64,000 bases of DNA from an uncultured delta proteobacterium. GTDB lineage: Bacteria; Myxococcota_A; Polyangia; Polyangiales; Polyangiaceae. The notes beneath the pieces were generated by a model that was given only the letters and a program-made list of their open reading frames with translations, searched no databases and was not told the DNA's origin. This document shows positions 16,061 to 50,134 of the stretch, piece by piece. The DNA is taken from positions 192,001-256,000 of the forward strand of contig CAWJCS010000004.1 of assembly GCA_963841435.1 (NCBI GenBank), in the 5' to 3' direction. The translations under genes and the position numbers were made by a program. Each line of letters opens with the position of its first letter. Position 1 is the stretch's first letter.

Positions 16061-16144
16061 GGGCTCGTGCACGAGGCGTCGCGGTGGGGACGCCTTCGGT
16101 GGCGTGGCCGGGCGTTCGCGAGCCGTGGGTGATAGGACGTGGGC

Positions 16145-17264
16145 ATGACGCCGGCCGACGAGAGGGAGCGCATCCGCAGGGTGGTGTTGGTGGTGCTCGT
16201 GAGCGCGATCACGGCCCTCTTTCTCTGGATGATCCGCGAGTTCTTGATGGCGCTCCTGCTCGCGGCGATCGTCGCCGGCATTTTGCAGCCCGCCTACCGG
16301 CGCGTGCTCGCCCGTTTGGGTGGTCGGCGCAGCCTCGCGGCGGGTGTCGTCGTCGGGCTCTTGACCCTGCTCGGCATTGCACCGCTCGCGGGGCTCGCCG
16401 TGCTCGCCGGCGTGCAGGCCGCAGCGCTCGTGAAGGCGGCCGATCCCGTCATCCGCGCAAGCCTCGCGGGCGGTTCGCTCGTGCACCGGCTCGTCGAGCA
16501 CTTCCCGCGGCTCTCGATGCTCGAGAAGTACGAAGCGCCGATCACCGAGAAGCTCGGTGAGCTCGGTGCGAGCGTCGGCAAGGTCATCGTCGGAGTGTTC
16601 ACGGCGGCTGCGGGCGAGACGCTTTCCTTCCTCCTGATCGCCTTCGTGCTGCTCTACGCCATCTTCTACTTTCTCGTGGGCGGTCGCGAGGTCCTGAGGA
16701 CGCTGCTCTACTATTCGCCGCTCCCCTCGGCCGACGAGGATCGCCTCGTGGGGCGGTTCCTGTCGGTGACGCGCGCGACGCTCAAGGGAACGCTGGTCGT
16801 CGGGCTCGTGCAGGGAACGCTCGGTGGGCTCGGCCTGTGGGCGGCGGACATCGGCGGCGCCGTTTTCTGGGGGGTCGTCATGACGATCCTTTCCGTCATT
16901 CCGAGTCTCGGGGTCGCCATCGTCTGGGTCCCTGCCGTCGTTTACCTCTACGCGACCGGCCACACGGTGGCCGCCACGCTGCTCCTGGCCTGGTGCACGC
17001 TCGTCGTGTCGACCGTTCGACAACGTCCTCCGCCCGGCGCTCGTCGGCAAGGACACCGAGATGCCCGACCTTCTGATCTTGCTTTCGACGATGGGGGGTA
17101 TCGCGCTTTTCGGGATCATGGGATTCGTCATCGGTCCATTGATTGCGGGCATGTTCGTGACGGCGTGGGAGATCTACGGTGAAGTCTTTCGCGACGTGCT
17201 GCCCGAGGTCCTGCCGCTTTCGGGGCGAGCGGCGGAGGCGCCGAGCACCGACTCGAGCCCCTAG
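16145..17264 (+). CDS. AI-2E (PerM/UPF0118) family transporter (apparent +1 frameshift near 17016)
   Basis: Multiple TM helices and IP.LG.AIVWVP. The corrected frame gives DNVLRP.LVG and STMGGIALFG..GFVIGP. Confidence 0.88.
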
Positions 17265-17361: not shown

Positions 17362-19002
17362 GTGTCCGAGTCCTTGAGTTACGTCGACGGACGCTACCGC
17401 CTGATAGCGCGCGTCGGTCAAGGCGGGATGGGCGTCGTCTACAGGGCGGTCCATGCGCTCACGGGTCGCGGGTGCGCCCTCAAGCTTCTGCGCTCGACCT
17501 GGATCGGCAACGCGGAGGTCACGCAGCGATTCTTCATCGAGGCGCGCGCGGCGACGCGTATCGCGCACGCGAACATCGTCGAGGTCATCGATGCGGGGTA
17601 TTCGGCCGCCGGGCCATACCTTGCGATGGAATGGCTGGACGGCGAGACGCTCGCCACCGTGATTCGGCGGGAGCAGCGTCTTTCGCTCGAGCAGACGCTC
17701 GCCATCGTCAAGCAGGTGCTCTCGGCGCTCGAGGCGGCGCACCGGGCCGGGATCGTGCATCGCGACATCAAGCCGGCCAACGTCTTCCTCACGAGCCGCG
17801 AGCGCCGGGCTCATCGCGTCAAGGTGCTCGACTTCGGCGTCGCGAAGATGCTCGAGTCGTCGGGGTCGCTCACCGAGTCGGGGCACGTGCTCGGGACGAC
17901 CGAGTATCTGTCGCCGGAGCAGGTGCAGGGCTCCGACGGCGTCGACGGGCGGAGCGATCTGTTCGCCGTCGGCATCCTTCTGTTCCAGCTTTTGAGCGGC
18001 ACGTCGCCGTTTCGAGGTCCGAACGGCGTCACGACGAGCTATCGCATCGTTCACACCGAGGCCCCACGGCTCGCCGAGGCCGGCGGTCCCGACGACCCAC
18101 GGCTCCAGGCTATCCTCGACCGCGCGCTCGCGAAGCGCCCCGAGGAGCGTTTTTCGAGCGCGAACGAGCTGTCCCTGGCTCTCGACGGGCTACTACCGGA
18201 GCTCGATCACGAGGCGGCGCTCCGCTCGCTCGCGCTCCAGGCGCAAGTCGAGATCGAGGGCGACGCTCCCACCGGGGTCCGCATGCAGCATCCCTCGGGC
18301 GTCCCAGGCCCGAACTCACCGACGCCCGTGGGGGTCGAGCGGGCGCCGTCGTCGCCGCGCGTGTCGCGCATCGGGGGGGCGACGCGAAGCCCCGACCCCG
18401 GTCAGGAAGCGCGCCGCGGGCGGCCCTCCGCGAAGCCCGACGCCCGCTCCGAAGAGCGCGTGCTCTCTGGCCGGGTCTTGCGGGCCCTTTACCGCACCAC
18501 GCTCATGCGGCACGGCACCGATGTCGTCCGCGCCGCGCTCCAAGAGTCATCGAGCGGCAAGCGGGTCGCCCTGGACGAGCGTATCGATCCGCATGCGCGT
18601 TACGAGCTCTCGGCGTTCGATCGCTACTGTGAGGGGTTGGCGTCGGTGCTCGGCGAGACGGATCTGCGCTACTGGCACGAGCACGGACAGGCCTCCGTCG
18701 AGGCGGAGCTCGTGGTCGAGCTACGCGCGATCTTCCGGGAGCACGCGCCGCTCGCCCTCGCCGAGGCGGCGCTGCCGCTCTGGGCCTCGCTGTTCGATTT
18801 CGGCACCTTTCGACTCGAGACGAGCGAAGGAAACGCGCATGCCGTGTGCGTGGACGACTTCGAGCGCGCCAGCCCGTCCCTCCAGGCCTGGGTGGCGGGC
18901 CTCGTGGAGCAGACCTTCCGCGCGGCAGGCCTCGCGGGCGCGACCGTGAAGACGACTCACGCCCGCGAAGGCACGCCGCTGACCTTGATTCTGCGTTTCT
19001 GA
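17362..19002 (+). CDS. Ser/Thr protein kinase with C-terminal myxobacterial DUF2378/V4R-like domain
   Basis: GQGGMG, ALK, HRDIKPAN, DFG, YLSPEQ; C-terminal LWASLFDFG...WVAGLVE. Confidence 0.9.
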   Translation: MSESLSYVDGRYRLIARVGQGGMGVVYRAVHALTGRGCALKLLRSTWIGNAEVTQRFFIEARAATRIAHANIVEVIDAGYSAAGPYLAMEWLDGETLATVIRREQRLSLEQTLAIVKQVLSALEAAHRAGIVHRDIKPANVFLTSRERRAHRVKVLDFGVAKMLESSGSLTESGHVLGTTEYLSPEQVQGSDGVDGRSDLFAVGILLFQLLSGTSPFRGPNGVTTSYRIVHTEAPRLAEAGGPDDPRLQAILDRALAKRPEERFSSANELSLALDGLLPELDHEAALRSLALQAQVEIEGDAPTGVRMQHPSGVPGPNSPTPVGVERAPSSPRVSRIGGATRSPDPGQEARRGRPSAKPDARSEERVLSGRVLRALYRTTLMRHGTDVVRAALQESSSGKRVALDERIDPHARYELSAFDRYCEGLASVLGETDLRYWHEHGQASVEAELVVELRAIFREHAPLALAEAALPLWASLFDFGTFRLETSEGNAHAVCVDDFERASPSLQAWVAGLVEQTFRAAGLAGATVKTTHAREGTPLTLILRF

Positions 19003-19016
19003 GCTGGTGAGCCGGC

Positions 19017-19352
19017 TCAGACGGCTTCGACGATGATGCGCCCGAAGCGTTTGCGGAAGCTCGCGACGAGCTTCTTGACCTGGGCTGGTGTCGCGAGGAG
19101 CCGCAACACTTCCTTCTTCGTCAAGCGATCGAGCTTGAAGGGAGCGATCGTCCGCTCGGGCGACTTCAGGAGCTGCCCGAGGAACTTGGGGTCCGCGACG
19201 GCGCGCCCGATCAGCGCGTGGAGGCCGACCTGGGGTTTCGCGCCGCCCCGGCGCTTCTTCGCCTTGCGGCGACGCTTCCTTTTAGGAGCCGCGCTCGGCG
19301 CGGGCCCCGCCGCCTTCGTCGTTTTGCGGGTTTTTTTCTTTCTTGCAGCCAT
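19017..19352 (-). CDS. small protein: Lys/Arg-rich N-terminus plus NHLP (nitrile hydratase leader peptide)-like helix
   Basis: LHALIGRAVADPKFLGQLLKSP matches the LI.RA..D..F...LL..P NHLP/Os1348-type leader pattern; RBS GAGGAG. Confidence 0.7.
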   Translation of the reverse strand: MAARKKKTRKTTKAAGPAPSAAPKRKRRRKAKKRRGGAKPQVGLHALIGRAVADPKFLGQLLKSPERTIAPFKLDRLTKKEVLRLLATPAQVKKLVASFRKRFGRIIVEAV

Positions 19353-19396
19353 GGGGAGCTCCTCGGGTTCGCTGGGTTGATGGACAATCGTGCGAT

Positions 19397-20365
19397 TTAG
19401 TCGATTCGGGAGACCGCGTGAGCCAGCCGAGCGAGCGAGACCTCTCCGGACAGGCGCCGGAGGTAGCCGGCGCGCTGTTCGGAATAGTCGGTGAAGGCGC
19501 GCATGCCGAGCGCCTCGGCGCTCGGCCGCGCCCGCTCGTGGAGCCGGATCGCCCGCCCGAGGGCTCGCTCGACGAGGTCGCTCTCGAACAGCGCCTTCTC
19601 GAGGGCTGCGGCGTCGCGTCGCTTCGAGGGCGCGACGCGGCGAGAGAGAGCCGCGACGAGAAAGGTTCGGTGACCGTGCGCGATGTCCCGACGAAATCCC
19701 TGGATATCGTTCGTGAGGCCGTACGCCTCACCCAGCGTTCGCACGAGCGGCGCGACGTGTCGCGCGCGCGAAAAATCTCCCTGCAGGGCGGCGACCGCGT
19801 AGAGCGGGATCTCGGCGAGGGCGGCCTTCCCGGAGTGGCGCACGAAGCTCGACATCGCATAGCGCGCTCCATGCCGCAACACCAACTCCTGCTCGACCGC
19901 CGTCGCGCGGGAGAACTCTCCGAGCGCGCGTCGACACGCGCGGCGGTACGCGGTGCTCTCGGAGCAGGCGAAGAACACCTCCGCTGCGTCCCAGATCAGG
20001 CAGTTTCCGAGCAGCAGCCACAGGGGCCTTCCTCGCCCCAGCGGTTCGTCGAGCACGTCGTCCTGTATCCGTGCGTAGAAGTAGGCGAGCGCCGTGGCCT
20101 CGAGCACGGAAAAGAGACGGCGCTCCGGGACGTTCCGGGCCATCCAGATGGGCAGATGCAGGAGCGGTGTCGCGCGCGGCCCCGAGAAGTAGCGCTCGCC
20201 ATCACCACCGATGCTCTTCAGGAAAGCCGCCCCGAGGCGCCCGATCCGGCCCGGGTAGCCGGTGAGCCGCTCGTCTAGGCGACGCCAGACTTCTCGGACG
20301 ATGGGCGCGCTCCTCTCGTACACTTCGAGGCGTTCGCCCTGCCTGGCGCTTCGGCTCGCCGTCAC
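19397..20365 (-). CDS. class I isoprenoid synthase-fold enzyme (ComQ-like prenyltransferase or terpene synthase)
   Basis: First Asp-rich motif IQDDVLDE, GK, and a second motif TNDIQGFRRD (pseudo-SARM/NSE type). GTGA overlap with the upstream gene. Confidence 0.78.
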   Translation of the reverse strand: MTASRSARQGERLEVYERSAPIVREVWRRLDERLTGYPGRIGRLGAAFLKSIGGDGERYFSGPRATPLLHLPIWMARNVPERRLFSVLEATALAYFYARIQDDVLDEPLGRGRPLWLLLGNCLIWDAAEVFFACSESTAYRRACRRALGEFSRATAVEQELVLRHGARYAMSSFVRHSGKAALAEIPLYAVAALQGDFSRARHVAPLVRTLGEAYGLTNDIQGFRRDIAHGHRTFLVAALSRRVAPSKRRDAAALEKALFESDLVERALGRAIRLHERARPSAEALGMRAFTDYSEQRAGYLRRLSGEVSLARLAHAVSRID

Positions 20366-21717
20366 CGCGCGCTAACCAGCGTGTTGCCCGTCTCGGACGA
20401 AGCGACCTCGAGCGGCTCCACGACGTAGACGGGCGCCGCGAGCCCCGGAATCATCCCAGGGGAGAGGCTCTTGGTTGCGTAGAGTCCGCGGATGGCGTCG
20501 TGGACGCTCTCGTCGACGAGAATGGGCCCGTAGCGCACGCTGGAAGCCTGCAGCCGCTCCGAGCGCGTGAGCGCCGGTCCCAAGACGGCGAAATCCATGC
20601 GCTCACGCGAGCCGATGTTCGCCGTGATCACCATGCCCTGCGCGATGCCGATGCCGACCGAGCTCTGCACGGCGGTCGCGTCGCCCTCCGCGTCCTTCGA
20701 CCGGAAGCGATCGCGCATTTCGATTGCGGCGCGGACGGCGGCGCCCGACGGATCGGGCACCTCGTAGGGCAGCCCGAACACGGCGACGAGCCCGTCCGAC
20801 GAGAACTTGTCGAGCGCGCCGCCGTAGCGCAGCACGATCTCGCTGAGGATCCCCAGGTTGCGGTTGAGCAGCGCCACGATGCCCTCCGGCTCGAGGCTCT
20901 CGGCGAGAGCGCTCATGTCCTCCATGCCGACGACGAGCACGGTGGCCGTGCGCCGCTCACTCGCGACGTCCGCTCGGTCCGGATGGTCGAGGACGTGCTC
21001 GAGGGCGGGTGGTGACAGGTAGCGCTTGAGGCGGAGCTGGCGCCGCTCGAGCTCGAGCTTGCGCACGGAATCGGTTGCCGCCTTGAGCAGGAGCTGGCGC
21101 GCGGCATGCGCCACCCATGCGGCGAGCGCTCCAGAAAATGCGATGAAAGCCACGATGGTGTACTGGTCTTCGAGCGAGACGATCTTCTCGCCGTAGAGCG
21201 CCGTGTCGGACACCTCCACGAGCCCGCGAGCCACGATCCACGCCAGCAAAAGCCCTCGCTGCAAGGCCGCCATCGTCGCGGCGAAGAGCGACAACCACAC
21301 GCTGTATTGCAGTCCCGTGAGGATCACGAACATCACGTAAAGGACACAGAAGATCGGCGCGAGCAGGGTTTCGTAGGCGCCCGAGTGGTTGTAGAGGCTC
21401 GTCATCGACGTGAGGCTGACGACGCTCGCGTCGGCGGCCGCGCCCACGTAGCTGAGCCACGGCAGGTGCAGCCCGCGACGGATGGCGAGGAACCCGAGCA
21501 CGGCGAGCGACAGGTAGCCGAGCCCGATCAGCACACCGGCACTCGTCGCTTCGGGCGTGTTGGCACCCTGGACCGCGAGACAGCTGACGATGCCGAACGC
21601 GCCGATCACCATGCGGATCAAGAACGTCGTCCGCGACCCGCGAATGCTCTCCTTCTGCAGGATCTCGACGATGTCGTCCGGCAGCGTCGCAGCCCCGCTT
21701 CTGCTCGAAGCGATCAC
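20362..21717 (-). CDS. multi-TM class III adenylate/guanylate cyclase-domain protein, degenerate active site
   Basis: About 6 TM helices, then GGALDKFSSDGLVAVFGLP, VGIGIAQG...NIGS.ERMDF.VLG. GTGA overlaps on both sides. Confidence 0.85.
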   Translation of the reverse strand: MIASSRSGAATLPDDIVEILQKESIRGSRTTFLIRMVIGAFGIVSCLAVQGANTPEATSAGVLIGLGYLSLAVLGFLAIRRGLHLPWLSYVGAAADASVVSLTSMTSLYNHSGAYETLLAPIFCVLYVMFVILTGLQYSVWLSLFAATMAALQRGLLLAWIVARGLVEVSDTALYGEKIVSLEDQYTIVAFIAFSGALAAWVAHAARQLLLKAATDSVRKLELERRQLRLKRYLSPPALEHVLDHPDRADVASERRTATVLVVGMEDMSALAESLEPEGIVALLNRNLGILSEIVLRYGGALDKFSSDGLVAVFGLPYEVPDPSGAAVRAAIEMRDRFRSKDAEGDATAVQSSVGIGIAQGMVITANIGSRERMDFAVLGPALTRSERLQASSVRYGPILVDESVHDAIRGLYATKSLSPGMIPGLAAPVYVVEPLEVASSETGNTLVSAR

Positions 21718-22667
21718 CAAGCCTTCTCCGAAAGCGCCCGCAGCGCCAGGCAAGTGCCGTACACGCGTCCCGCGTACCACAGCTCGGCGGGCGCACCGTC
21801 GATTGCGAAGGAACCGTCGCTCGCTTGTGAATCGAGCAGGAAATATCGTCCCCGCGCCAGGGCCGCCGCGACGCGGGGGGTCCTTCCGACGCTCGCGAGC
21901 GTGATCAGGGCCAGCGCGGTGCAGAGCGGGCTCGCGCGCGCAGGCGTGAGATCGAAGCCCCATCCGCCCTCCCTCGTCTGCCGCGCGAGCGCTTCGCGCA
22001 AGAGCCCCGGTGGCTCGAAAAGGCGGACGCCGACGTGCGCGGGGTAGAAGAGCGAGGCGTAAAAGGCGGGGTGACCCTGCCAGGTCGCGGCGTCGGCGAG
22101 GTCCTCGCGGAGCGCACCGAGGCCTTGCTTTCTGCGCTCGGTCGCGCCCGCGTGGCGCCGAAGGGCGAGGAGCGTCCAGGCGGTGACGGAAGGACCCGTG
22201 AAGTAGGCATCGTATCCGGCGGGACTGCTCGTGACGAACGTGCGAACGCGACCGTCGGGCAGCCACTGCCGCACGAGCGCGCGGCACAGCGCCCCCTTTG
22301 CTCCCGGAATGGCGAGCGATGCGGCGGCCGTGGTCTCTGCACAGGTGCCGCGCGTCTGGCTCGAATGCGAGAGGCTGCCGTCCGGCAGCCGGTGAGCGAG
22401 AACGAACTCGCTCGCCTTCGGCAGCCGCTCGCCGACCTGCCTGAGCGCGAGCAACGTGTTCACGGTGTTCCAGACGTCCGTCCCGCCTGTGGCGAAAAAT
22501 GCCTCGCGTAGCGAAACCCGCCGCCTGAGGATCGCGAGCGGGTCGCGCACCGGCTCGAGCACGGCGCCGCTCGCGTGTTGGCACGAGCGCAAGAACGCAG
22601 AGGCTCGGGCGCAGGCCTCGCGCAAGAGGGAGCTCTTCGGCGGTTTCGCCACGGATGCTGGGCGCAT
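21714..22667 (-). CDS. prenyltransferase/squalene cyclase-repeat (alpha/alpha barrel) protein (alternative start 22784)
   Basis: QW-like repeats LRSCQHASG, LAHRLPDGS, VRQWLPDG, LARQTREGGWGF and LLDSQASDGSF; no DxDD. Confidence 0.75.
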   Translation of the reverse strand: MRPASVAKPPKSSLLREACARASAFLRSCQHASGAVLEPVRDPLAILRRRVSLREAFFATGGTDVWNTVNTLLALRQVGERLPKASEFVLAHRLPDGSLSHSSQTRGTCAETTAAASLAIPGAKGALCRALVRQWLPDGRVRTFVTSSPAGYDAYFTGPSVTAWTLLALRRHAGATERRKQGLGALREDLADAATWQGHPAFYASLFYPAHVGVRLFEPPGLLREALARQTREGGWGFDLTPARASPLCTALALITLASVGRTPRVAAALARGRYFLLDSQASDGSFAIDGAPAELWYAGRVYGTCLALRALSEKAW

Positions 22668-22815
22668 GCTACTCGCAGCGAGGCCCAGCGAAAAAGCGGC
22701 GCGGATCGGCTCGACTTGGGCCGTCCCGGGAGGCAAGCTCGTGATCGCCGCGGCGACTCGCCCAGGGACGTTGAAGAAACTCATGCGACGCCCCAATCGA
22801 GGCTAGGGAACGAAC

Positions 22816-23139
22816 GTGGCTCGAGCGAAGCGAAGCCCGCGAGCGAGAACCGGCATCAGACGGGCCCGCATGCTCGACGAGAAGCTCGTGCGAGCCCGCA
22901 CGAGGCTGTTCGAATTGGAGGCGGGAGGCAAAAAGGCGCGGCCCATCGACGTTTCGACGGCGGCGCTCGTCGAACCTCGCGCCCGTTCGGCGCGCTGTCC
23001 GCGCTGCGACGAGCCGTTCGACGTCGTGGCCCACGAAGCAAGGAGCGAGGGCGTCGAGCGGTTGCGCGAGGCCAAGCTCGTGTGTCGTTTCTGCAAGGTC
23101 GAGCGCTCGCTCTGGTTCCGGGTCGTCGCGCGTTCGTGA
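22816..23139 (+). CDS. zinc-ribbon hypothetical protein
   Basis: CPRC...CRFC; basic N-terminus. Confidence 0.65.
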   Translation: MARAKRSPRARTGIRRARMLDEKLVRARTRLFELEAGGKKARPIDVSTAALVEPRARSARCPRCDEPFDVVAHEARSEGVERLREAKLVCRFCKVERSLWFRVVARS

Positions 23140-23192
23140 CGCATGCGGCACCCGTTGACGCCGTCCCCGCACGCGGATAGTGGTCGCGAAGC

Positions 23193-23360
23193 ATGTCGCG
23201 GGTAGCCACGATTGAGAGTGCGACCGTGCAGGCGGGCGCACTGCGCGCGACCGGTCACTACTTTCTGCTCGACGAGGGGGTCACGCTCCAGGATTCCGTC
23301 CTGCTCGGGGCCGACCTCGGCATCCAGTTCTTCGCGCTCCAGCTCGGCCTGATGTCCTAG
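23193..23360 (+). CDS. possible 55-aa protein
   Basis: Hand-translated MSRVATIES...GIQFFALQLGLMS*. High GC3 in the 3' half; below the ORF-track cutoff. Confidence 0.35.
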   Translation: MSRVATIESATVQAGALRATGHYFLLDEGVTLQDSVLLGADLGIQFFALQLGLMS

Positions 23361-23379
23361 TGACGCCTGGGACGCGAGC

Positions 23380-25881
23380 TTGACGCGACCCCGGCGAACG
23401 CGTGGGCTCGGCGCGAGAGCTCTCGCGATGTCGGTCGTCACCGCCGCGCTCGGCAGAGCCGCCCCGAACGCCGACGCGCGCCCACCCGCCGTCGCGCCGA
23501 GCTCCCGGCCCGCACCGGGAACGGAGCCGAGCCCGTCGCCGCCGTTGCCTGTCGAGATCACTCCGCCACGGCTGCTCGGCGACGCGGAGGTGACGTACCC
23601 CGAGGGCGCTCACGGGGACGCGATCGTCGTCTTGACGCTCGTCGTCGGTCCTGACGGCAAGGTTCGCTCCGCGACGGCGAACGAGCCCCACGAGCCCTTC
23701 TCGAGCGTTGCGGAGACGGAAGCTCGAGCGTTCGAGTTCGAGCCGGCGCGGCGCGCCGGTGTTCCGGTCGCAGCGAAGATCCGGCTCCAGGTGCGTTTCG
23801 CCGAGCCGCGGCGCGAAAGAGACACCGCCGCGCCGCCGACCGCTCCCGTGTCCCCATCGCCCGTCGCCGCCGTCGCCGCTGGGGATGCTCGAGCCGGAGT
23901 CGAGGGGCGGGAGCCCACCGAGGTCGTCGTGCTCGGCCTGCGCGCCGAGCCGTCGCGCACCGCGACGCTCTCGCGCGCGGAGGTGCGCGAGATCCCGGGC
24001 ACGTTCGGTGACCCCTTCCGCGCCGTAGAGACGCTGCCGGGCGTGACGCCCATCGTGTCCGGTCTGCCCTTCTTCTTCGTGCGCGGCGCGCCGCCGGGCA
24101 ACGTGGGCTACTTTCTCGATGGGGTCCGCGTACCGGTGCTGTTTCACGTTGGCGCCGGTCCCTCGGTCGTCAATCCCGCGCTCATCGATCGCGTTGACTT
24201 CTACCCGGCCGGGTACCCGGCGCGGTTCGGCCACTTCGCGGGCGGTGTCGTCGCCGGCGAAACGCTGCCGCCGAGCCCCGAGCTGCACGGTGAGTACAAC
24301 CTGCGCGTCTTCGACGCCGGCGCGCTCGTGGAGGCACCGTTCGCCGGCGGGCGTGCCACGGCGCTCGTCGGAGGGCGCTACTCGTTCACGGCGCTCGCGC
24401 TTTCGCTGCTCTCGCCGACGACCGCGCTCGACTACTGGGACTACCAGGCGCGCCTCAGCTACGAGGTCGGGCCGCGTGACCGCCTCGAGCTCTTTTCGTT
24501 CGGCTCGTACGACTACGTGGGCGAGCGCACGCCGACCGAGACCATCACGCTGTTCGGTACCGAGTTTCATCGCGTCGATCTGCGCTACGATCACCGCTTC
24601 TCCCCGCGCAGCAAGCTGAGGACGGCGTTCACGCTGGGGCTCGATCGCTCGCGGCTCCAGGACCGCGAGCGCCACGTGCGCGTGAAGCTGCTCTCGGGCC
24701 GCAACGAGCTCGAGCACTATTTTTCCGAGGGCGTGCTTCTCAGGGCCGGCACGGACCTCGGGCTCGAGAGCTACGACATCGAGCTCGGGACCAGCGACCT
24801 CTCGCCGAGCGCGGCGCGCGTCGCCGCAGCGTATCCGTCGCGCACCGACCTCTCGCTCGGACTGCGCGGCGACGTCGTGCTCTACTTCGGCAAGCGCTTC
24901 GAGGTCACGCCGGGCGTCCGCGCGGATCTCTACGCCTCCGACGGAAGCTCGGCGTTCGGCGTCGATCCTCGGCTCGCACTGCGCGCTCGCGCCACGCCGC
25001 ACGTTTCGGTGCTGGGCGTTGCGGGCGTCGCGCACCAGCCGCCGTCGTTCGTCGTTCCGCTACCGGGTTTTCAGCCGGGCGGGCTACCGGGCGGGCTGCA
25101 GCGAGCGCTGCAGGAAAGTCTCGGGGTCGAGCTCGAGCTCGGTGACGGCATGACGCTGACGGCCACGGTCTTCCAGAACGCCTTCTTCAACATGAGCGAT
25201 CCGCTCGGAGCGCTCGAGCCGCAGGCGAACGGCTGCCCGCCGGGCGCGTACCCGGCCGACTCGATTGGCGGTGACCTCGGCAGGCAACCGAGCGGCTCGG
25301 TGACGTGCGGCGAGCGCTTCGAGCCCGGCACGCTGGGTCCCGATCGCAGCGGCGGCGGGGGTCAGGCTGCCGACAGTCGCTCGGGACAGCGAGTGAGCCG
25401 CGCCTTCGAGGTGCGTACCCTCGGGGCCTCGCGCGGCTTCGAGCTCTACTTCAAGCGGCGCCTCACCGAGCGACTCGGCGGGTTCTTGTCCTACACGCTG
25501 TCCCGCTCGACGCGGAGCTACGAGGGAAGGCGCTACGTCGCCGCCTTCGATCGCACCCACGTCGCCAACGTTGCCGCGGCGTACGACCTCGGACTCGGCT
25601 TTCGCGCGGGCGCCCGGGTCGTCTTCTACACGGGGTTGCCCCGGCCCGCCGAGCCGAGCGGTTCCGGGTCGGCCCGTTTGCCTGCGTTTTTTCGCTTGGA
25701 TGCGCGCCTCGAGAAGCGCTTCCTGCTCGGCGAGCGCGCGCGCCTCTCAGTGGTCGCGGAATGGCTGAATGCCACGCTCAGCAAGGAAGCCGTGTCGACG
25801 ACGTGCACGCTCGCCGGTTGCGAGTCACAAGTCATCGGTCCTGTCACGATCCCGAGCCTCGGGATAGAAGGGGCATTTTGA
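23380..25881 (+). CDS. TonB-dependent receptor with N-terminal TonB C-terminal-like domain
   Basis: YPEGA..DAIV.L.L.VG.DG.V...FEPA; plug motif IPGTFGDPFRAV..LPGV and LIDRVDFYPAGYPARFG; C-terminal GIEGAF. Confidence 0.88.
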   Translation: MTRPRRTRGLGARALAMSVVTAALGRAAPNADARPPAVAPSSRPAPGTEPSPSPPLPVEITPPRLLGDAEVTYPEGAHGDAIVVLTLVVGPDGKVRSATANEPHEPFSSVAETEARAFEFEPARRAGVPVAAKIRLQVRFAEPRRERDTAAPPTAPVSPSPVAAVAAGDARAGVEGREPTEVVVLGLRAEPSRTATLSRAEVREIPGTFGDPFRAVETLPGVTPIVSGLPFFFVRGAPPGNVGYFLDGVRVPVLFHVGAGPSVVNPALIDRVDFYPAGYPARFGHFAGGVVAGETLPPSPELHGEYNLRVFDAGALVEAPFAGGRATALVGGRYSFTALALSLLSPTTALDYWDYQARLSYEVGPRDRLELFSFGSYDYVGERTPTETITLFGTEFHRVDLRYDHRFSPRSKLRTAFTLGLDRSRLQDRERHVRVKLLSGRNELEHYFSEGVLLRAGTDLGLESYDIELGTSDLSPSAARVAAAYPSRTDLSLGLRGDVVLYFGKRFEVTPGVRADLYASDGSSAFGVDPRLALRARATPHVSVLGVAGVAHQPPSFVVPLPGFQPGGLPGGLQRALQESLGVELELGDGMTLTATVFQNAFFNMSDPLGALEPQANGCPPGAYPADSIGGDLGRQPSGSVTCGERFEPGTLGPDRSGGGGQAADSRSGQRVSRAFEVRTLGASRGFELYFKRRLTERLGGFLSYTLSRSTRSYEGRRYVAAFDRTHVANVAAAYDLGLGFRAGARVVFYTGLPRPAEPSGSGSARLPAFFRLDARLEKRFLLGERARLSVVAEWLNATLSKEAVSTTCTLAGCESQVIGPVTIPSLGIEGAF

Positions 25882-40594: not shown

Positions 40595-40747
40595 CCCCGA
40601 GCTCTGCGACCGTGGAAGAACGGATTGCGATCGGCGCCGGCCGCAAAGACGCACGGGAAATACGGGCACGGCCGCTTGGGCGGGCCCGCGGCGCTCGGCG
40701 GGTGACGCACGTGCCCCGGGGCTGATACCGTGGCGGGCTGATCCATC

Positions 40748-43700
40748 ATGAGCCTGGCCCCGGCAGCCGTCACGATCCCGGACCGCTTCAGCATCGAGCG
40801 ACGGCTTGGCGCGGGCGCCTTCGGCACGGTCTTCGTCGTCTGGGATCGTGAGCGCGAGCAGCGGGTTGCCCTCAAGCGCCTCGAACGCGCGGATCCGGCG
40901 TCCATCTACCGCTTCAAGCAGGAGTTTCGGGCGCTTGCCGACCTCGTGCACCCGAATCTCGTGCGGCTGCACGAGCTGTTCGCGCTCGACGAAGGCTGGT
41001 GTTTTACGATGGATCTCGTCGACGGCGTGCGCTTCGACACCTGGGCACGCGGTTTCGACGAGGAGCCAGACGACCCGGGCTCCGACGGTGCCTCGCGTTC
41101 GGGGCCGCGGCGCGGCGCGTCCGTCGAAACGTTGCTCGACCTGCCGTCGCCGTCGGGCGACGGCCTCGTGCGGGCGCTGCCGGGGCGCCTGCCCTTCGAC
41201 GAGGAGCGGGCTCGGCGCGCGGCGCGCGGGCTCTTGCGCGGGGTGATCGCGCTGCACGCCGCGGGCATCCTGCACCGTGATCTCAAGCCCTCGAACGTGC
41301 TCGTGGAGCGCGACGGCCGCGTCGTGATCCTCGACTTCGGCCTCGTCGCGACGAACGTCGTCGAGAGCCACCTGAGCCTCGACGGAACGGTCGCCGGCAC
41401 GCCCGCCTACATGTCGCCGGAGCAGGCCAAGGCGCTGCCGCTCACCGCCGCGGCGGACTTCTACGCCGTCGGGGCGATGCTCTACGAAATTCTCTGCGGG
41501 CACGTGCCCTTCGCGGGCTCGATTGCCGCCATGCTCGGCGCGCGCACGCTCAAGGACGTGCCGGACCCGCGCGACGCGTGGCAAGGCTTGCCCAACGACC
41601 TCTGCGACCTTTCGCTCTCGCTCTTGCGGCGCGACCCGATGCGGCGACCGACCGCCGTCGAGCTCGTTTCGTCACTCGACCTCGAGATGGCGGCGCGCCA
41701 CGTTTCGGCACCGGCAGCGACGACGTTCGTCGGGCGCCAGGCGGAGCTCGCCGCGCTCGAACGTGCGCTGGCTCAGGCGAAGGCCGGCAAGACGGTCGTC
41801 GCGCATGTCCACGGCCCGTCGGGCTACGGCAAAACCACGCTCCTAAGACGCTTCCTCGGCGGCCTCGGAGAGAGGCACGAGGTGACCGTGTTCGAGGGGC
41901 GCTGCTACGAGCGCGAATCGGTTCCGTTCAAGGCGTTCGACGAGCTCGTCGACGCGCTCGGCCGCCATCTCGCGCGGCTCAGGCCCGTCGAGGCGGCGGC
42001 GCTCGTACCCCGCGACGCGCCGGCGCTGATCCGTCTGTTCCCCGCGCTCGGTCGGCTCGACGTCATGGCCAGCGTGCCGGGGCGGCCGGCGACGGCCGAT
42101 GCGCACGAGCTCCGCCGTCGCGCTTTCGGGGCGTTGCGCGAGATCGTCACGCGCCTCGGTGACAGCCGGACGCCGATTCTCGTCATCGACGACGCGCAAT
42201 GGGGCGATGCCGACAGTGCGAAGCTCGCGCGGCACGTGCTGGCGCCTCCCGATGCTCCGCCGCTGCTCCTGATCGTGGCCCACCGCAGCGACGGCGAAGA
42301 GGACAACGAGCTCTTGCGCACGTTGCGCTCGCCCGAGGCCTTCGACGTGGCGTGGGAAACCGTCGACGTGCCCGTCGGGCCGCTCGCCGAGCTCGACGCG
42401 CTGTCGCTCGCGGCGAGCTTGCTCGGCTCGGATGGCGCCGAGGGCGAGCAAAGCCGCGCCATCGCCGCGGAGTCGGCCGGAAGCCCGCTGTTCGTTTCCG
42501 AGCTCGCGCGGACGGCCAAGGCCGGTCGGGGCAACGCGCAGGTGGTCTCGCTGCAGCGCGTGGTTGACGAGCGCGTGGCCTCGCTCCACGACGCGGCCAA
42601 GGTCGTGCTCGAGCTGCTCGCCTGCAGCGAGCGCCCGCTGGAAGAGGGTGAGCTGCGCGCGGCCGCCGGCCTCGACGCGCAGGGGTTATCCATGGCGATC
42701 GATCGCCTGCGCGACGAGCACCTGCTCGCCGTCGCCACGCGCCGCGGCCGCACCGTGCACGCCATCCCCCACGACAAGCTTCGACTTTCGGTGCGCGCGG
42801 GCCTCGACGCCGCGCGCATCGAGCGGCATCACCTGGCGCTGGCGCGCGCGCTCCAGTCGTCGGGTGATGCGGAGCCGGAGCACCTGGCACACCACTTCCG
42901 CGCTGCCGGTGTGCGGCACGAGAGCCTGCTCTGGAACGAGCGTGCCGGCGATCAGGCCCAGGAGGCCGCGGCTTTCGAACGCGCGGTCACGCTCTACGGT
43001 TTCTCGCTCGAGCACGCCGAGGGGCTCGAGCGGCGCCGCCTCATGCAGAAGCGCGCCGTGGCGCTCGCCAACGCGGGCAGGGGGCTCGACGCCGCCGAGG
43101 CGTACCTTTCGGCCGCTGCGGCGCTAAACGGCGACGCGGCCCTCGAGCTCCGGCAGCGCGCTGCCGAGCAGTTCTTGAGGGCAGGGCACGTCGCCGACGC
43201 GCTCGCCACCTTCGGCCCCGTGCTCAAACAAGCCGACCTCGATCTGCCGAAGTCGCCCAAGACAGCGCTCGCTTCGCTGCTCATGGCGCGCGCCAGGCTG
43301 AAGCTCCGCGGCACCCGTTTCCGCGAGCGAAAGGAGGAGGACGTGCCCACGGCGAGCTTGCACCGCATCGATCTTTGTTGGTCGCTCGGCAACGGGCTCT
43401 CCGGCATCGATTTGGTGCGGAGCGCGAGCTACCACGGTTCGAGCTTGCTTCTCTCGCTCGACGCTGGCGAGCCGTACCGCGTGGCACGGGCGCTCGCGAT
43501 GCACGCCGTGATGAAGGCGCTCGAGAGCGCCGAGGGCGCACGCCACGCGGAGGAGCTCGCGGATCGCGCACACGCGCTCGCCGAGCGCACCGGTCTCGTG
43601 AGCGCGCGCGGTTGGGCCGCCGCGGCGCGCGCGATCATCGCCTGGGGCAACTCGGAATTTGCGGCGTGCGTCGCGCGTTGCGACGACGCGCAAGGGCTGC

Positions 43701-44507
43701 TGCGCGAGCGCTCTCAGGCCAATTTCCGCGAAATTGGCTCGCTCGAGGTCTGGTTCGCGCTCCATTCGCTGTTTCTCCTCGGCGAGCTCGACCGCTTCGC
43801 AGAACGCGCGCCGGCGTGCGCTCGCGAAGCCGAAGCGCGCGGCGACCGCTACACGCTCTCGACCGTGCGCGCCTACGACATGCCCGTGCTGTGGGCGATC
43901 CGTGATCGGCCCCTCGAGGGTCGCCGCGAGGCGAAGGCCGCCATCGAGCCGTGGCCCGAAGGCGTCTGGTACCACCAACATTGGGCGGCGGTGCGGGCCC
44001 ACTGCCTGCTCGACCTCTACTCCGGCGACGGCGAGAAGGCGCTCGAGCGCGCCGCCAGCGCCCGGCCGCTCATGCAGCGCGCCATGCAGCTTCGCATCCG
44101 CACGCTCCGCCTGGAGCTCAACTACCTGGAGGCGCGCGGCGCGCTCTCGGCGGCGCTCGCCGGCAACGGCGTGGTGGAGCGCACGCGCCTCGTCGAGGAA
44201 CGCGTGAAGTTGCTCGACGCCGAGCAGAGTGGCCTCGCGAGCGTCTACGCGGGCGCATTGCGGGCCGGTCTCGCCGGGCTTGCGGGAGGTCAGCCGGCGG
44301 TCGTCGCCTTCCAGCGCGTGCGCGACGCATTCCGCGCCCTGTCGATGCCGCTGCACGCCTCGGCGGCCGAGCACCGCATCGCCGAGCTCGAGGTCACGGG
44401 ACGCCCGCCCGACGACGCTCTCGACCGACTGCACGCGCACGGCGTCGTCGCGCCCGAGCGCTTCGTTCGACATGCTCTTGCCCGCGGTGCGGCCGCCGGG
44501 GAGCTGA
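40748..44507 (+). CDS. Ser/Thr kinase - AAA ATPase - TPR-like multidomain protein (as-is ORF runs to 44629; probable +1 frameshift near 44466)
   Basis: GAGAFG, HRDLKPSN, DFG; FVGR..EL, Walker A GPSGYGKT, Walker B LVIDDAQW; helical C-terminus. Confidence 0.9.
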
Positions 44508-44625
44508 GCCAGCCCGCGCGCGACGCGCCCGAGCGCGCTAAAAATTCCGGCGCCGCCACCTTGTTTCACGTTCGTGTCGGGGGTGGCGCCCACGCGAATC
44601 CCGTGCGATCCAACGGGCCGGCCCC

Positions 44626-45712
44626 GTGAAGCTCCCGCTCGCGCTCGCTCCGCTCGTGATTTCCCTAGCGTGTGGTCGGTCGAGCCTCGACGACCTCCTG
44701 CTCGACGCGTCCGGTGCGGGCGGCGGCGGCTTCGGTGGTAGCTCGGGCCGCGGCGTGGGCGCGAGCGGCGGTGACGGCAATGCTCCGAGTCAGGGCGGGG
44801 ACGCCGGAGGCTCACGCGGCGGCACGTCGGGTGCTTCGGTCGGCGGGGCGTCGGGTGCTTCGGTCGGCGGCGGGTCCGGAGTGGGCGGCGCCGCGGCGGG
44901 TGCGGGCGGAATCGGCGGCGCAAGCGGTGCGAGCGGCGCGGGGCGCGGTGCGGAGGCGGGCGCTGCCGGGCGACCGGACGCGCGCTGCGGCGACGGCAGC
45001 GTCGATCCGGGTGAAAGCTGCGACCCGGGCTCCGACCCAGCACCTTTTGCCCTCGAGATCCGCCAGGGCGACCTGCGCGTCGAGGTGCTCCCGCTCGTGG
45101 GCCCGAGCTCCGCCACCGACTTTTATGCCTACCGCTCGGCGAGCGCGCACACGGGGTTCGAGGCCGTCGGCGCGAGCCGGATTTACCTTTATCGTTGGAG
45201 TGCCGAGCAGGCGCTGAGCCTCGTCATGCACCACGGCATCGACGCCGGCTCGGGCGTTGCTCAGCCCGAGTCGTCGGTGATCTTCGGGATTCAAGGGTCT
45301 GCCTAGCACGGGTGTCGTCGCCGTCTCCGACGATCGCAACGAGCTCGTGCGCGACACCCCGAGCTCCGCGGTCGGTGACTGGGGATTCGACAACAACTCG
45401 GACGGCGGCGTGATCGGTGGTCTGCCCTGGCCCGGCAGCTTCCACCTCGTCGTCCAAGCGTCGTTCCTCGCGGGCATCACCGACTGGAGCTACCTGTCCG
45501 GTACGGGCAACCCCGATGTCGGCGTCGCACAAAGCTACGCGCTCGACCCCTCCCAGCCGCTCGAAATCATCGCCTCGGGCGATGCCGTCGAGTGTCGCGC
45601 CGACTGCACGCTCCCCACGTGCGGCGACGGGCACCTCGATCCAGGCGAGGTGTGCGACGACGGCAACGATGCACCGGGGGACGGCTGCGTCAGCTGCCTG
45701 CCGGAGCCTTGA
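44626..45712 (+). CDS. Gly-rich lipoprotein with myxobacterial Cys-rich (DUF4215-like) repeats (apparent +1 frameshift near 45296)
   Basis: LAC lipobox; CGDG.VDPGESCD and CGDGHLDPGEVCDDGN..GDGC. Confidence 0.75.
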
Positions 45713-46886: not shown

Positions 46887-48374
46887 ATGCGGCTGCGCTC
46901 GTCGCCGCTCGTCGCCGCGCTCGTTCTCGTCGCCTGTTGCCTGCTCGCGACGGTCGCGCTCGCGCGACCCGGCGGCGGTCAGGCCTTCGGCGGCGGCACC
47001 CCGCACTCCTCGGGCCACGGCGGGGGCGGGGGCGGCAACGTCAACATCGGCCTCGTCATCGAGCTCGTGATCCTTTGCTTTCGCTACCCGCCGCTCGGGG
47101 GCGCCGTCGTACTCGTGGTCGTCGGCTACGCCGTCGTGCAGCGGCTCGGGCGCGGCAAGCTCACCGACTGGTCGGTGGGCGCGCCCGAGACCCGCGTGCG
47201 CTCGACGCGCCACGCCACCGTGGCCCGCAGCGCCCTCAATCGGCTCCGGCAAAGCGACCCCGCGTTTTCGGTCGTGCTGCTCGAGGACTTCGTCTACGCG
47301 CTCTACGCAGAGCTCCAGGTCCGCCGGCCGCACGGTGGCCTCCGCGCGATCGAGGCGTTCGTCGCACCCGAGGTTGCGACCGCTCTCGCCGATCCCTCGC
47401 TGGAAGCGGTCACGGGCGTCATCGTGGGCGCGCTCCGCTTCACGAGCTTCACGGCGCAGGGTGACTGGGTCGTGCTCGGCGTCGAGCTCGAGGTGAATCT
47501 CGGTGAGGCACGCGGCGGGCAGACCTCGCGCTACTACGCGGTCGATCGCCTAGTGCTCGTCCGCGCGGCCGGGGCGCGCTCACGCCCGCCCGCGCGCGCC
47601 AGAAAGCTCGACTGCGCGAACTGCGGCGCGCCGCTCGAGTCGCTGCGCGGAACGCGTTGCGCCTATTGCCAAAACGAGGTGGGCGGCGGCCGCCTCGACT
47701 GGCTCGTGCGCGAAGTGCATCGTCTGCACACCGAGGCGCGCCCGCCGCTCGTCACGGGCAACGTCGAGGAGCGCGGCAACGAGCTCCCGACGCTCCGGGA
47801 CCCCGGCGCCGAGCAGCGTCTCGGCGAGCTTGCCAGCCGCGACCCGGGATTTTCGCGCGACGCCCTGTTCGCCCGCATCGGGCTCGTGTTCTCGGAGCTT
47901 CAGCGTGGCTGGTCCACTCGCAATCTCGCCCCCGTCCGCCCCTACGTCACGGACAACCTCTTTCAGTACTTCGGCTACTGGGTCAACGTGTATCAGCAAG
48001 CGCGCGCTCGCAACGTCACCGAGAACGCTCGCATCCTGCGGCTCGAGCTCGCGAACGTCCTCACCGACACGTATTACGACGCCGTCACCGTGCGCCTCTT
48101 CGCCACGGGGCTCGACTACACGCTCTCCGACGACGATGGCCGGGTGCTCTCCGGCAGCCGTCGCCGCGAGCGGGCCTACAGCGAGTACTGGACGCTCGTG
48201 CGGGGTCGCGGCGCCAAGGGCCCTGCCCGCACGACGCCGAGCTGCCCGAGCTGCGGCGCGCCGCTCAAGATCGCCATGGCGGGCAACTGCGAGTATTGCC
48301 ACGCGCGCGTCGTCAGCGGCGAGTTCGATTGGGTGCTCTCGCGCATCGAGCAGGACGAGGTTTACGGGGGCTGA
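46887..48374 (+). CDS. protein with two Tim44-like domains and zinc ribbons
   Basis: ARPGGGQ.FGG start; two DP.FS...F motifs; YSEYWTL.R; CANCGAP...CAYC and CPSCGAP...CEYC. Confidence 0.8.
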   Translation: MRLRSSPLVAALVLVACCLLATVALARPGGGQAFGGGTPHSSGHGGGGGGNVNIGLVIELVILCFRYPPLGGAVVLVVVGYAVVQRLGRGKLTDWSVGAPETRVRSTRHATVARSALNRLRQSDPAFSVVLLEDFVYALYAELQVRRPHGGLRAIEAFVAPEVATALADPSLEAVTGVIVGALRFTSFTAQGDWVVLGVELEVNLGEARGGQTSRYYAVDRLVLVRAAGARSRPPARARKLDCANCGAPLESLRGTRCAYCQNEVGGGRLDWLVREVHRLHTEARPPLVTGNVEERGNELPTLRDPGAEQRLGELASRDPGFSRDALFARIGLVFSELQRGWSTRNLAPVRPYVTDNLFQYFGYWVNVYQQARARNVTENARILRLELANVLTDTYYDAVTVRLFATGLDYTLSDDDGRVLSGSRRRERAYSEYWTLVRGRGAKGPARTTPSCPSCGAPLKIAMAGNCEYCHARVVSGEFDWVLSRIEQDEVYGG

Positions 48375-50056: not shown

Positions 50057-50134
50057 CGGTCGAGCATAGTGCCGATCGACGCTTCTCGCCCCTCGTCGGG
50101 TGAGACCCCGAGCGAAGAGCGCGTCCCGCGACGC

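Follow-up and report, generated by a model that had tools for sequence, protein, structure and literature searches.

The four minus-strand genes studied here, named a, b, c and d, lie in a 64-kb stretch of DNA (64,000 nucleotides, hereafter the window; contig CAWJCS010000004.1, positions 192,001 to 256,000) from an uncultured delta proteobacterium of the Polyangiaceae, in the Myxococcota. Together with a convergent Ser/Thr kinase gene, the fifth member, they most likely form a split, myxobacterial, tryptophan-independent relative of the ComQXP/PalQXP and ChrPC systems, built from different parts. Our argument was built on the folds and motifs of the encoded proteins, the order and coupling of the genes, the conservation of the gene set in related loci and a natural fusion of c-like and a-like domains, and from these we infer the enzymatic and signalling steps. 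A preliminary description of the window had proposed a ComQXP-like signal cassette, and this fits what was found: c is predicted to have the trans-isoprenyl-diphosphate synthase (trans-IDS) fold, d is an NHLP-clan protein with a short tail encoded beside c, and a signalling protein is nearly always adjacent.

In the mechanism that we propose, d would be the precursor and would dock on c by its NHLP-type helical domain. The conserved DDxxDE/R-G/K site of the enzyme would bind an allylic prenyl diphosphate, and the prenyl chain would be attached to the short tail that follows a conserved F-G (RIIVEAV in the window), at an acceptor other than tryptophan. The barrel protein a would then act on the attached chain, by cyclisation or related protonation chemistry via E111/C109. 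Less surely, the leader may be removed and the lipopeptide leave the cell, the six-transmembrane (6-TM) domain of b may sense it in the membrane, and b may hand the signal on through protein contact, the likeliest partner being the co-conserved Ser/Thr kinase. We put forward the full chain, from prenylation of the d tail by c and processing by a to a sensing branch of b and the kinase, as a tentative model whose probability falls a little short of even; its chemical part is more likely than its signalling part.

The trans-IDS-fold enzyme and its peptide neighbour

Structure prediction placed c with high confidence in the trans-IDS fold, as a chain-length-synthase type rather than a class I cyclase. 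The best Foldseek match of the model (predicted local distance difference test, pLDDT, 94.4; predicted template-modelling score, pTM, 0.92) was 4jyx_B, with a template-modelling score of 0.71 (scores reached 0.72 among the matches), and all of the top 50 VIA-align matches were trans-IDS enzymes (Z 19.4-23.0, root mean square deviation (rmsd) ~3 Å, 250-287 residues aligned). The motif resembling the first Asp-rich motif (FARM) reads R99-I-Q-D102-D-V-L-D106-E...R111-G, followed by K180, and the counterpart of the second Asp-rich motif (pseudo-SARM) reads Y-G-L-T-N219-D220-I-Q-G223-F-R-R-D227...T234; DDVLD (residues 102-106) and NDIQGFRRD (219-227), both named in the preliminary description, were thus found in c. 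Across an alignment of 48 sequences, R99, D102, D106, K180, N219, D220, D227 and T234 were invariant, the first Asp-rich motif was kept, and NDxxG (N219-D220-x-x-G223) replaced DDxxD. All relatives of c, including distant ones, kept the first motif, and the donor-site signature as a whole (R-I-Q-D-D-x-x-D-E, R-G, K180, N-D, D227 and T234) showed little or no variation, also in fused and distant forms.

Co-occurrence of the genes was checked in 46 related loci, among which near-duplicates (L005/L021/L022 and L010/L040) leave fewer independent cases than the counts suggest. Searches by tblastn with the window proteins agreed with profile searches, the profiles being built from the same loci. Gene d adjoined c in 33 of the 46; nine of the 13 loci without d have less than 2.5 kb of sequence downstream, the other four hold the most distant relatives of c, and three further distant loci (L050, L056, L057) carry d beside c. 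In 24 of the 46 loci a full transmembrane (TM) cyclase of the b type was encoded upstream of c and on its strand, and 14 of the 22 loci without it have less than 1.4 kb of upstream sequence. Gene a was found in 12 loci and the C-terminal domain of the kinase likewise in 12, with both present in nine; each exception ends at a contig edge. In the tree of c, groups 2, 3 and 4 of the loci each formed one well-supported branch and the window fell in a separate clade of nine proteins, the other eight of which have no recovered context. Loci L024-L026 are labelled group 1, with neither a nor the kinase seen there. In groups without any a, c kept d as its neighbour.

The accessory sets of the sister groups comprised a kinase-cyclase-AAA16-TPR protein with an M50-like peptidase (group 2); a methyltransferase, a P450 and a cyclase-cyclase-STAND protein; or a GNAT-domain protein with cyclic-nucleotide (cNMP)-binding proteins. 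Some loci showed the arrangement c-d-X-b. Radical SAM, PqqD-M50 and S8/S41 peptidase genes were also found among these neighbours, which, with the methyltransferase and P450, are as in modified-peptide clusters. The signalling protein, which was almost always adjacent and accompanied c in every group, took the form of a TM-cyclase (b), a cyclase-STAND, a cNMP-binding protein or, in L051 and L052, a HATPase_c (histidine-kinase-type) protein. In loci of the Polyangium type and in those with the c-d-X-b arrangement, proteins of 567-609 residues (aa) without a Pfam family lie between c and d or d and b (L016:9000-10829 (-), L056:5847-7625 and L057:7405-9108).

Sequence comparison placed d among the NHLP/Os1348-clan small proteins, and we propose it as a precursor peptide. 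Its residues 1-40 form a Lys/Ala/Pro-rich extension and residues 44-103 an NHLP/Os1348-type helical domain; the protein ends in the tail FG-RIIVEAV. When the d family was checked against NHLP models, NF038399 (Os1348 family, NHLP clan) matched 28 of 28 members at E<=1e-3 (best 3.2e-19), the NHLP leader model TIGR03793 matched 10 of 28, and d of L016 scored 57.8 bits against PF14407 (Frankia_peptide), over the Pfam cut-off. Among PDB entries, the d profile matched 6lk7, an 85-residue chain (E 1.3e-6), the NHLP chimera 8tb1 (E 1.7e-3) and nitrile-hydratase alpha chains. From its length and label we take 6lk7 to be Os1348, whose paper does not name the accession in its text. The ECOD paper, in its available text, groups Frankia_peptide, Nif11, ComX and NHase-alpha together.

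The tails of d follow a conserved Phe-(x)-Gly and are short and group-specific (FG-IHVEMG, ARGEYVC, RKAAA, or F[LP]GG with a Gly-rich core ending MG), and because of this d reads as a putative leader-plus-core precursor. Tail length was 4-7 residues in groups 1 and 2. At the junction, group 4 proteins have F-[LP]-G-G and then a variable core, and the window protein has F-G and then seven residues; a Gly-Gly type leader/core junction is what we take to be a feature of NHLP precursors. The N-terminal extension of the window d (19233-19352, minus strand), ~40 residues long and histone-H1-like, is shared with d of L030 (982-1110) and missing from the other 26 d proteins. A lanthipeptide-like system, with the kinase and a LanC-like barrel, was considered and rejected, as Cys is absent from the tails of group 1 and Ser/Thr from most of them.

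By analogy with known systems, we propose that c is a peptide prenyltransferase. A number of points weigh against this. According to the available text of PMC13290415, all characterised trans-IDS-like peptide prenyltransferases target Trp, other nucleophilic residues in place of Trp abolished PalQ activity, and Trp recognition is based on a Gln that precedes the second motif. There is no Trp in any of the 28 d proteins, nor is any tail residue conserved across all groups that could serve as a universal acceptor. Residue G216 of c is nearly invariant, giving Y-G-L-x-N-D in the window clade with Gly where the Gln is expected; distant relatives have Q-L-x-N-D, with the Gln present. Single-sequence matches were also weak: c matched PF19086 under the cut-off (E 6.5e-3) and no polyprenyl synthase model of Pfam or NCBIfam at E<=1, and the window d fell below the cut-offs of PF14407 (28.9 bits against 48) and NF038399 (31.5 against 40). 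The four domain assignments of the preliminary description were nevertheless right, and family profiles and folds made all of them firm.

With neither Trp nor another universal acceptor in the 28 precursors, and with the Trp-recognition Gln missing from the window clade, the locus could also be read as a modified-peptide cluster in which c transfers no prenyl group. It would then bind the NHLP-type leader or use another diphosphate donor, and the real chemistry would be done by partners: a in the window, and radical SAM, P450 or methyltransferase enzymes elsewhere. Distant c-like domains with R-I-Q-D-D-x-x-D-E are indeed fused N-terminal to radical SAM domains (L051:4954-7401, L052:5975-7981, L053:6063-8036 and L059:4129-7113), beside HATPase_c proteins of 795-805 aa and S8 peptidases, in what looks like a separate, undescribed enzyme architecture. 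RiPP (ribosomally synthesised and post-translationally modified peptide) recognition domains often sit N-terminal in the same way, so the fusions might fit a docking, mainly peptide-binding role for c. We regard this explanation as distinctly unlikely. The donor-site signature is kept, completely or nearly so, even in fused and distant c, where a mere docking domain would not need it; the fold matches catalytic trans-IDS enzymes over 250-287 residues; and a terpene-cyclase-like domain is found as the partner of c or fused to it. If c does prenylate d, no earlier trans-IDS-like peptide prenyltransferase would have used an acceptor other than tryptophan, and c would broaden the toolset for peptide lipidation that is now under development, as the available text of PMC13290415 describes.

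The cyclase-like barrel, the membrane protein and the kinase

The model of a (pLDDT 89.5) firmly indicated a single-domain class-II terpene-cyclase-like alpha/alpha barrel with QW-type repeats. VIA-align ranked 8paj_A first (Z 29.9, rmsd 2.8 Å, 287 residues aligned, 26% identity), followed by drimenyl-PP synthase (29.4), squalene-hopene cyclase (SHC; 27.6) and MstE (26.3), with unrelated barrels at ~20-22, and the family profile of a matched SHC at E 1.9e-24. Invariant positions are G62-x-D64-x-W66, C109-x-E111-T112, H199, Y203 and Y208. Other results tell against cyclase chemistry by a. The single-sequence family match, PF13243, was under the cut-off (E 1.1e-3), and a contains no DxDD, an absence that the preliminary description had recorded correctly. 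In our reading, C109-x-E111-T112 (CxET) occupies the position of the SHC motif DxDDTA, a predicted placement taken from the repeat register; a phmmer search of PDB with residues 50-200, made to place the acid motif, gave a chance match only.

A tie between a and c was seen in P0059, a natural fusion of 686 aa found through a, in which a c-like domain (hhalign 92.5%, E 4.9e-7) is joined to an a-like domain (97.9%, E 3.3e-13); the protein carries D-T-D-D. The suggestion that a is a second prenyl-handling enzyme is supported by this fusion and by the class-II cyclase fold. In the window, b separates the genes a and c, which do not encode a one-polypeptide prenyltransferase-cyclase enzyme. A search for longer, fused relatives of c found none, which is weak evidence. 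A further protein, P0039 (598 aa, from a metagenome), fuses a UbiA-type membrane prenyltransferase to an a-like barrel with C-x-E-T, which suggests that cyclase-like domains with CxET that act together with prenyltransferases form a wider clade. An hhalign comparison of c with P0039 gave nothing; the N-terminus of P0039 is UbiA and not c-like. The split c/a pair would offer a simple system for a one-domain class-II cyclase acting on a peptide-bound prenyl chain, and would test whether CxET can stand in for DxDD.

The affinities of a also bear on a small-molecule reading, in which the joint product of c and a is a cyclised free isoprenoid or meroterpenoid, d is a helper or regulator and no substrate, and b and the kinase are ordinary regulators. 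The nearest structures to a are free-substrate cyclases (the small myxobacterial 'SHC', drimenyl-PP synthase and MstE), P0039 links its a-like domain to a small-molecule type of prenyltransferase, and the window d tail has no obvious nucleophile. We nevertheless consider such a pathway highly unlikely. Groups without a still have d beside c, and genes for peptidases and for tailoring of the peptide type are present in them, one with a PqqD-type domain. The N-terminal Lys/Arg of the isopentenyl diphosphate (IPP) site of elongating synthases appears to be absent from the c consensus, and c resembles chain-length synthases rather than class I cyclases. The persistence of d and the chain-length-synthase character of all 50 top matches also weakened the class I/class II terpene pair that the preliminary description had offered as its alternative.

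In b, six hydrophobic stretches that we read at residues 31-207 form a TM domain (residues ~30-207), and a class III cyclase-homology domain follows at ~250-411. Its match to PF00211 (25.8 bits, over the cut-off of 21.9) was the sole single-sequence family match of a-d that passed a curated cut-off, and the family profile matched Cya2/CyaB structures at E 1e-43 to 1e-56 (Cya2, 2w01, at 1.5e-47). Six positions with catalytic or specificity-determining roles were compared. At the catalytic ones (metal Asp1, metal Asp2, transition-state Asn and Arg), b in the window has G, D, T and R. Its four closest relatives have the same residues, three slightly more distant ones have A/G at Asp1 and S/T at Asn, and relatives of groups 2 and 3 have the canonical D, D, N and R. 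In the other lineage that contains a, both metal Asp residues have been lost through different replacements. Because a metal-binding Asp and the transition-state Asn are replaced, the cyclase domain of b in the window should be read as a pseudo-cyclase, probably catalytically dead. The preliminary description was right as to the 6-TM and cyclase-homology domains, and its cyclase-domain receptor is better termed a pseudo-cyclase. Signalling by contact, as in the proposed mechanism, would follow from a dead cyclase domain.

The TM domain of b occurred with cyclase domains in 10 of 10 matches and never otherwise. Atlas gave 6TM_PilS and MASE2 at 0.90-0.94 for this domain, as leads only. The receptor role that we propose for b draws on gene order, analogy and these weak leads, which tells against the sensing branch. 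A rhomboid, CPBP or M50 protease role for the TM domain was rejected because it has no invariant His. The kinase matched Pkinase at E 8.9e-48, and its residues ~345-546 form a C-terminal domain without a Pfam family, for which Atlas gave DUF2378 and V4R at 0.83-0.84 only. In nine loci the kinase was 39-40% identical over residues 11-523 and convergent in orientation. The four-gene composition of the preliminary description was thus incomplete, having missed this conserved fifth gene.

The same chemistry could also serve an antibiotic or effector, with b, the kinase and the STAND/cyclase proteins serving control of its production, immunity or export and not perception of the peptide, an explanation that we hold to be somewhat unlikely. 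Os1348, the founding member of the d family, contributes to antibiotic activity (available text of PMC7726476), and prenylation raises the membrane activity of peptides (available text of PMC13290415). A curated model, TIGR03903, exists for the kinase/cyclase fusions of NHLP-type TOMM clusters, and b matches it weakly. Against this, b is translationally coupled to c and its dedicated TM domain is confined to the b family. The tails of 4-7 residues in groups 1 and 2 are nearer in size to the 8-residue core of PalX than to a typical antibiotic. Finally, the HATPase_c signalling gene stands adjacent in L051 and L052, as histidine kinases do in the Pal cluster.

The signalling part of the proposed mechanism could be extended to a pheromone class in the Myxococcota: a peptide of 4-7 residues bearing a prenyl group at a non-tryptophan site, possibly its C-terminal end, would be remodelled by a CxET cyclase and sensed by a dead-cyclase 6-TM protein with a Ser/Thr kinase partner, and in sister lineages an active cyclase would feed cNMP-binding proteins. 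We offer this extension as an improbable proposal. In at least five architectures, c-d pairs are consistently found with a protein of the cyclase-homology, cNMP-binding, STAND-kinase or histidine-kinase type. The long-noted but unexplained link between NHLP peptides and kinase/cyclase proteins thereby becomes directly testable, and the pheromone reading, if true, would give that association a function. Two lineages appear to have lost the catalytic residues of b in different ways while keeping the TM domain, which is a natural experiment on pseudo-cyclase signalling.

Layout and distribution of the locus

The gene structure given in the preliminary description was borne out (Table 1): four minus-strand genes, two GTGA overlaps, a 44-bp gap and a GAGGAG site were all present where it had placed them. 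On the minus strand, the stop of a overlaps the start of b in GTGA at 21717-21714, and the stop of b overlaps the start of c in GTGA at 20365-20362. The gap lies between the TAA of c (19399-19397) and the ATG of d (19352-19350). The longest open reading frame (ORF) of a, 21714-22796, has its first start at TTG 22796, and the start is most likely the later ATG, since relatives align only from residue ~55-60 of the long form. The G+C content of the window is ~69%. Third-position G+C was 0.83-0.89 in all four genes, the same as in the nearby glmS and TonB receptor genes, and because of this resemblance to neighbouring housekeeping genes the four ORFs are judged real genes rather than chance ORFs. 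A promoter and terminator scan of 18800-23400 was uninformative, with no promoter-like site and four terminator-like sites against 2.2 expected.

Table 1. Coordinates of the cluster genes and of the ribosome-binding site of d in the window
Feature	Position	Strand	Remarks
Gene a	21714..22667	-	317 aa; putative start ATG 22667
Gene b	20362..21717	-	451 aa; GTG start
Gene c	19397..20365	-	322 aa
Gene d	19017..19352	-	111 aa
GAGGAG ribosome-binding site of d	19359..19364	-	6 nt 5' of d ATG; read in sequence
Hanks-type Ser/Thr kinase	17362..19002	+	546 aa; convergent to d; conserved member of this cluster sub-type

The c family is rare: of 5.8 billion proteins, 17 belong to it. A search with c itself found no match in 24 genomes of the same genus or 16 of the same order, and a profile search of the genomes of the phylum gave 29 positives among 401 at E<=1e-10, seven of them close. 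DNA comparison with 25 genomes of the genus gave no match in 19000-22800 among the matches listed. As c has no protein match in the 24 genus genomes and the DNA comparison agrees, the cluster is an accessory island. The source genome has a single d. A search of sequencing runs found no RNA run with the cluster and one soil-metagenome DNA run, with 0.09 of the sampled words. Locus L008 (CAMAWH010000021.1) is titled as a Klebsiella pneumoniae metagenome-assembled genome (MAG) and carries a group-2 cluster with the gene order of Myxococcota-type MAGs; it is probably a mislabelled or mis-binned contig.

Directly upstream of a, on the opposite strand, lies an ORF of 107 aa (22816-23139, plus strand) with weak zinc-ribbon-like matches (E 0.02); unlike the cluster itself, it has relatives at the DNA level, 69-75% identical, in some of the genus genomes. 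Beyond the kinase, an AI-2E family transporter (16139-17264, plus strand) shows an apparent frame change near 17020-17060: ORF 16139-17182 covers positions 3-273 of the 327 of the Pfam profile, and the hydrophobic C-terminus continues in ORF 17061-17264. A frameshift, a pseudogene or an error of assembly might explain the change. Two further Ser/Thr kinases are encoded in the window, at 40742-44629 (plus strand) and 48362-50134 (minus strand). One of them is a 1295-aa kinase-AAA16 STAND protein of a type found beside c-d pairs in sister groups; it lies ~20 kb from the cluster.

Comparison with known systems

The preliminary description had held the composition of the cluster to be without precedent. 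Its core logic is in fact covered by PalQ/PalX/PalP (PMC10853753) and by the ChrPC/NctPC fusions (PMC13290415), as far as the available text of these papers goes. Our literature search, which covered few subscription journals, found no c-type enzyme described with a TM-cyclase neighbour, although the primary ChrPC paper and its supplements may list related clusters; it also found nothing on the 8paj/8pak proteins or on Franean1_4349.

The Os1348 cluster of Pseudomonas sp. Os17 resembles the window in its peptide, which belongs to the NF038399 family, matches the Pfam family Frankia_peptide and is treated as a modified-peptide precursor. Its partners, a GNAT, an HEXXH protein and a SagB-type dehydrogenase, are all missing from the window cluster. 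The TIGR03903 TOMM kinase/cyclase fusions likewise set cyclase-homology and Ser/Thr kinase domains beside NHLP-clan peptides, and the kinase-cyclase-AAA16-TPR protein of group 2 has their architecture. In the window, unlike in those clusters, kinase and cyclase are two proteins, the cyclase is membrane-bound and degenerate, and there is no cyclodehydratase. TIGR03903 was the best NCBIfam match of b, but at 26 bits against a cut-off of 706 b is not a member.

MstE and the small 'squalene-hopene cyclases' of Archangium gephyra and Cystobacter fuscus (PDB 6sbb, 8paj, 8pak) are, like a, one-domain beta-type barrels of ~320-350 residues, and a aligns with MstE, 8paj and 8pak at Z 26-30 over ~285 residues (rmsd ~3 Å, identity 19-26%). 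The acid motif of MstE is DxD (available text of PMC12414744), whereas a has the invariant C109-x-E111-T112 and H199. A barrel of this kind is also part of ChrPC, in which, according to the available text of PMC13290415, a trans-IDS-like P domain prenylates a peptide and an MstE-like C domain cyclises the attached prenyl. The window cluster resembles ChrPC/NctPC in this pairing of a putative peptide prenyltransferase with an MstE-like one-domain class-II cyclase for the attached chain. It differs in that a and c are split with b between them, in the CxET of a (the fused relative P0059 has D-T-D-D) and in its acceptor, which cannot be Trp.

The closest likeness in overall logic is to PalQXP of Paenibacillus alvei and ComQXP of Bacillus. 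The available text of PMC10853753 describes PalP as a histidine kinase, PalX as an NHLP precursor whose core has 8 residues and PalQ as an isoprene-synthase-superfamily prenyltransferase acting on the C-terminal Trp, and notes that ComQ has no SARM. Shared with the window are an isoprenoid-synthase-superfamily enzyme that keeps the first Asp-rich motif and a membrane signalling protein encoded alongside; the Pal cluster also shares a precursor of the NHLP type that has its very short core at the extreme C-terminus. Unlike the Pal and Com systems, the window cluster has precursors without Trp and a c with Gly instead of Gln before the second motif. Its putative sensor is a 6-TM pseudo-cyclase with a separate Ser/Thr kinase instead of a histidine kinase, its host belongs to the Myxococcota and not the Bacillota, and the terpene-cyclase-like enzyme a is added to the set.

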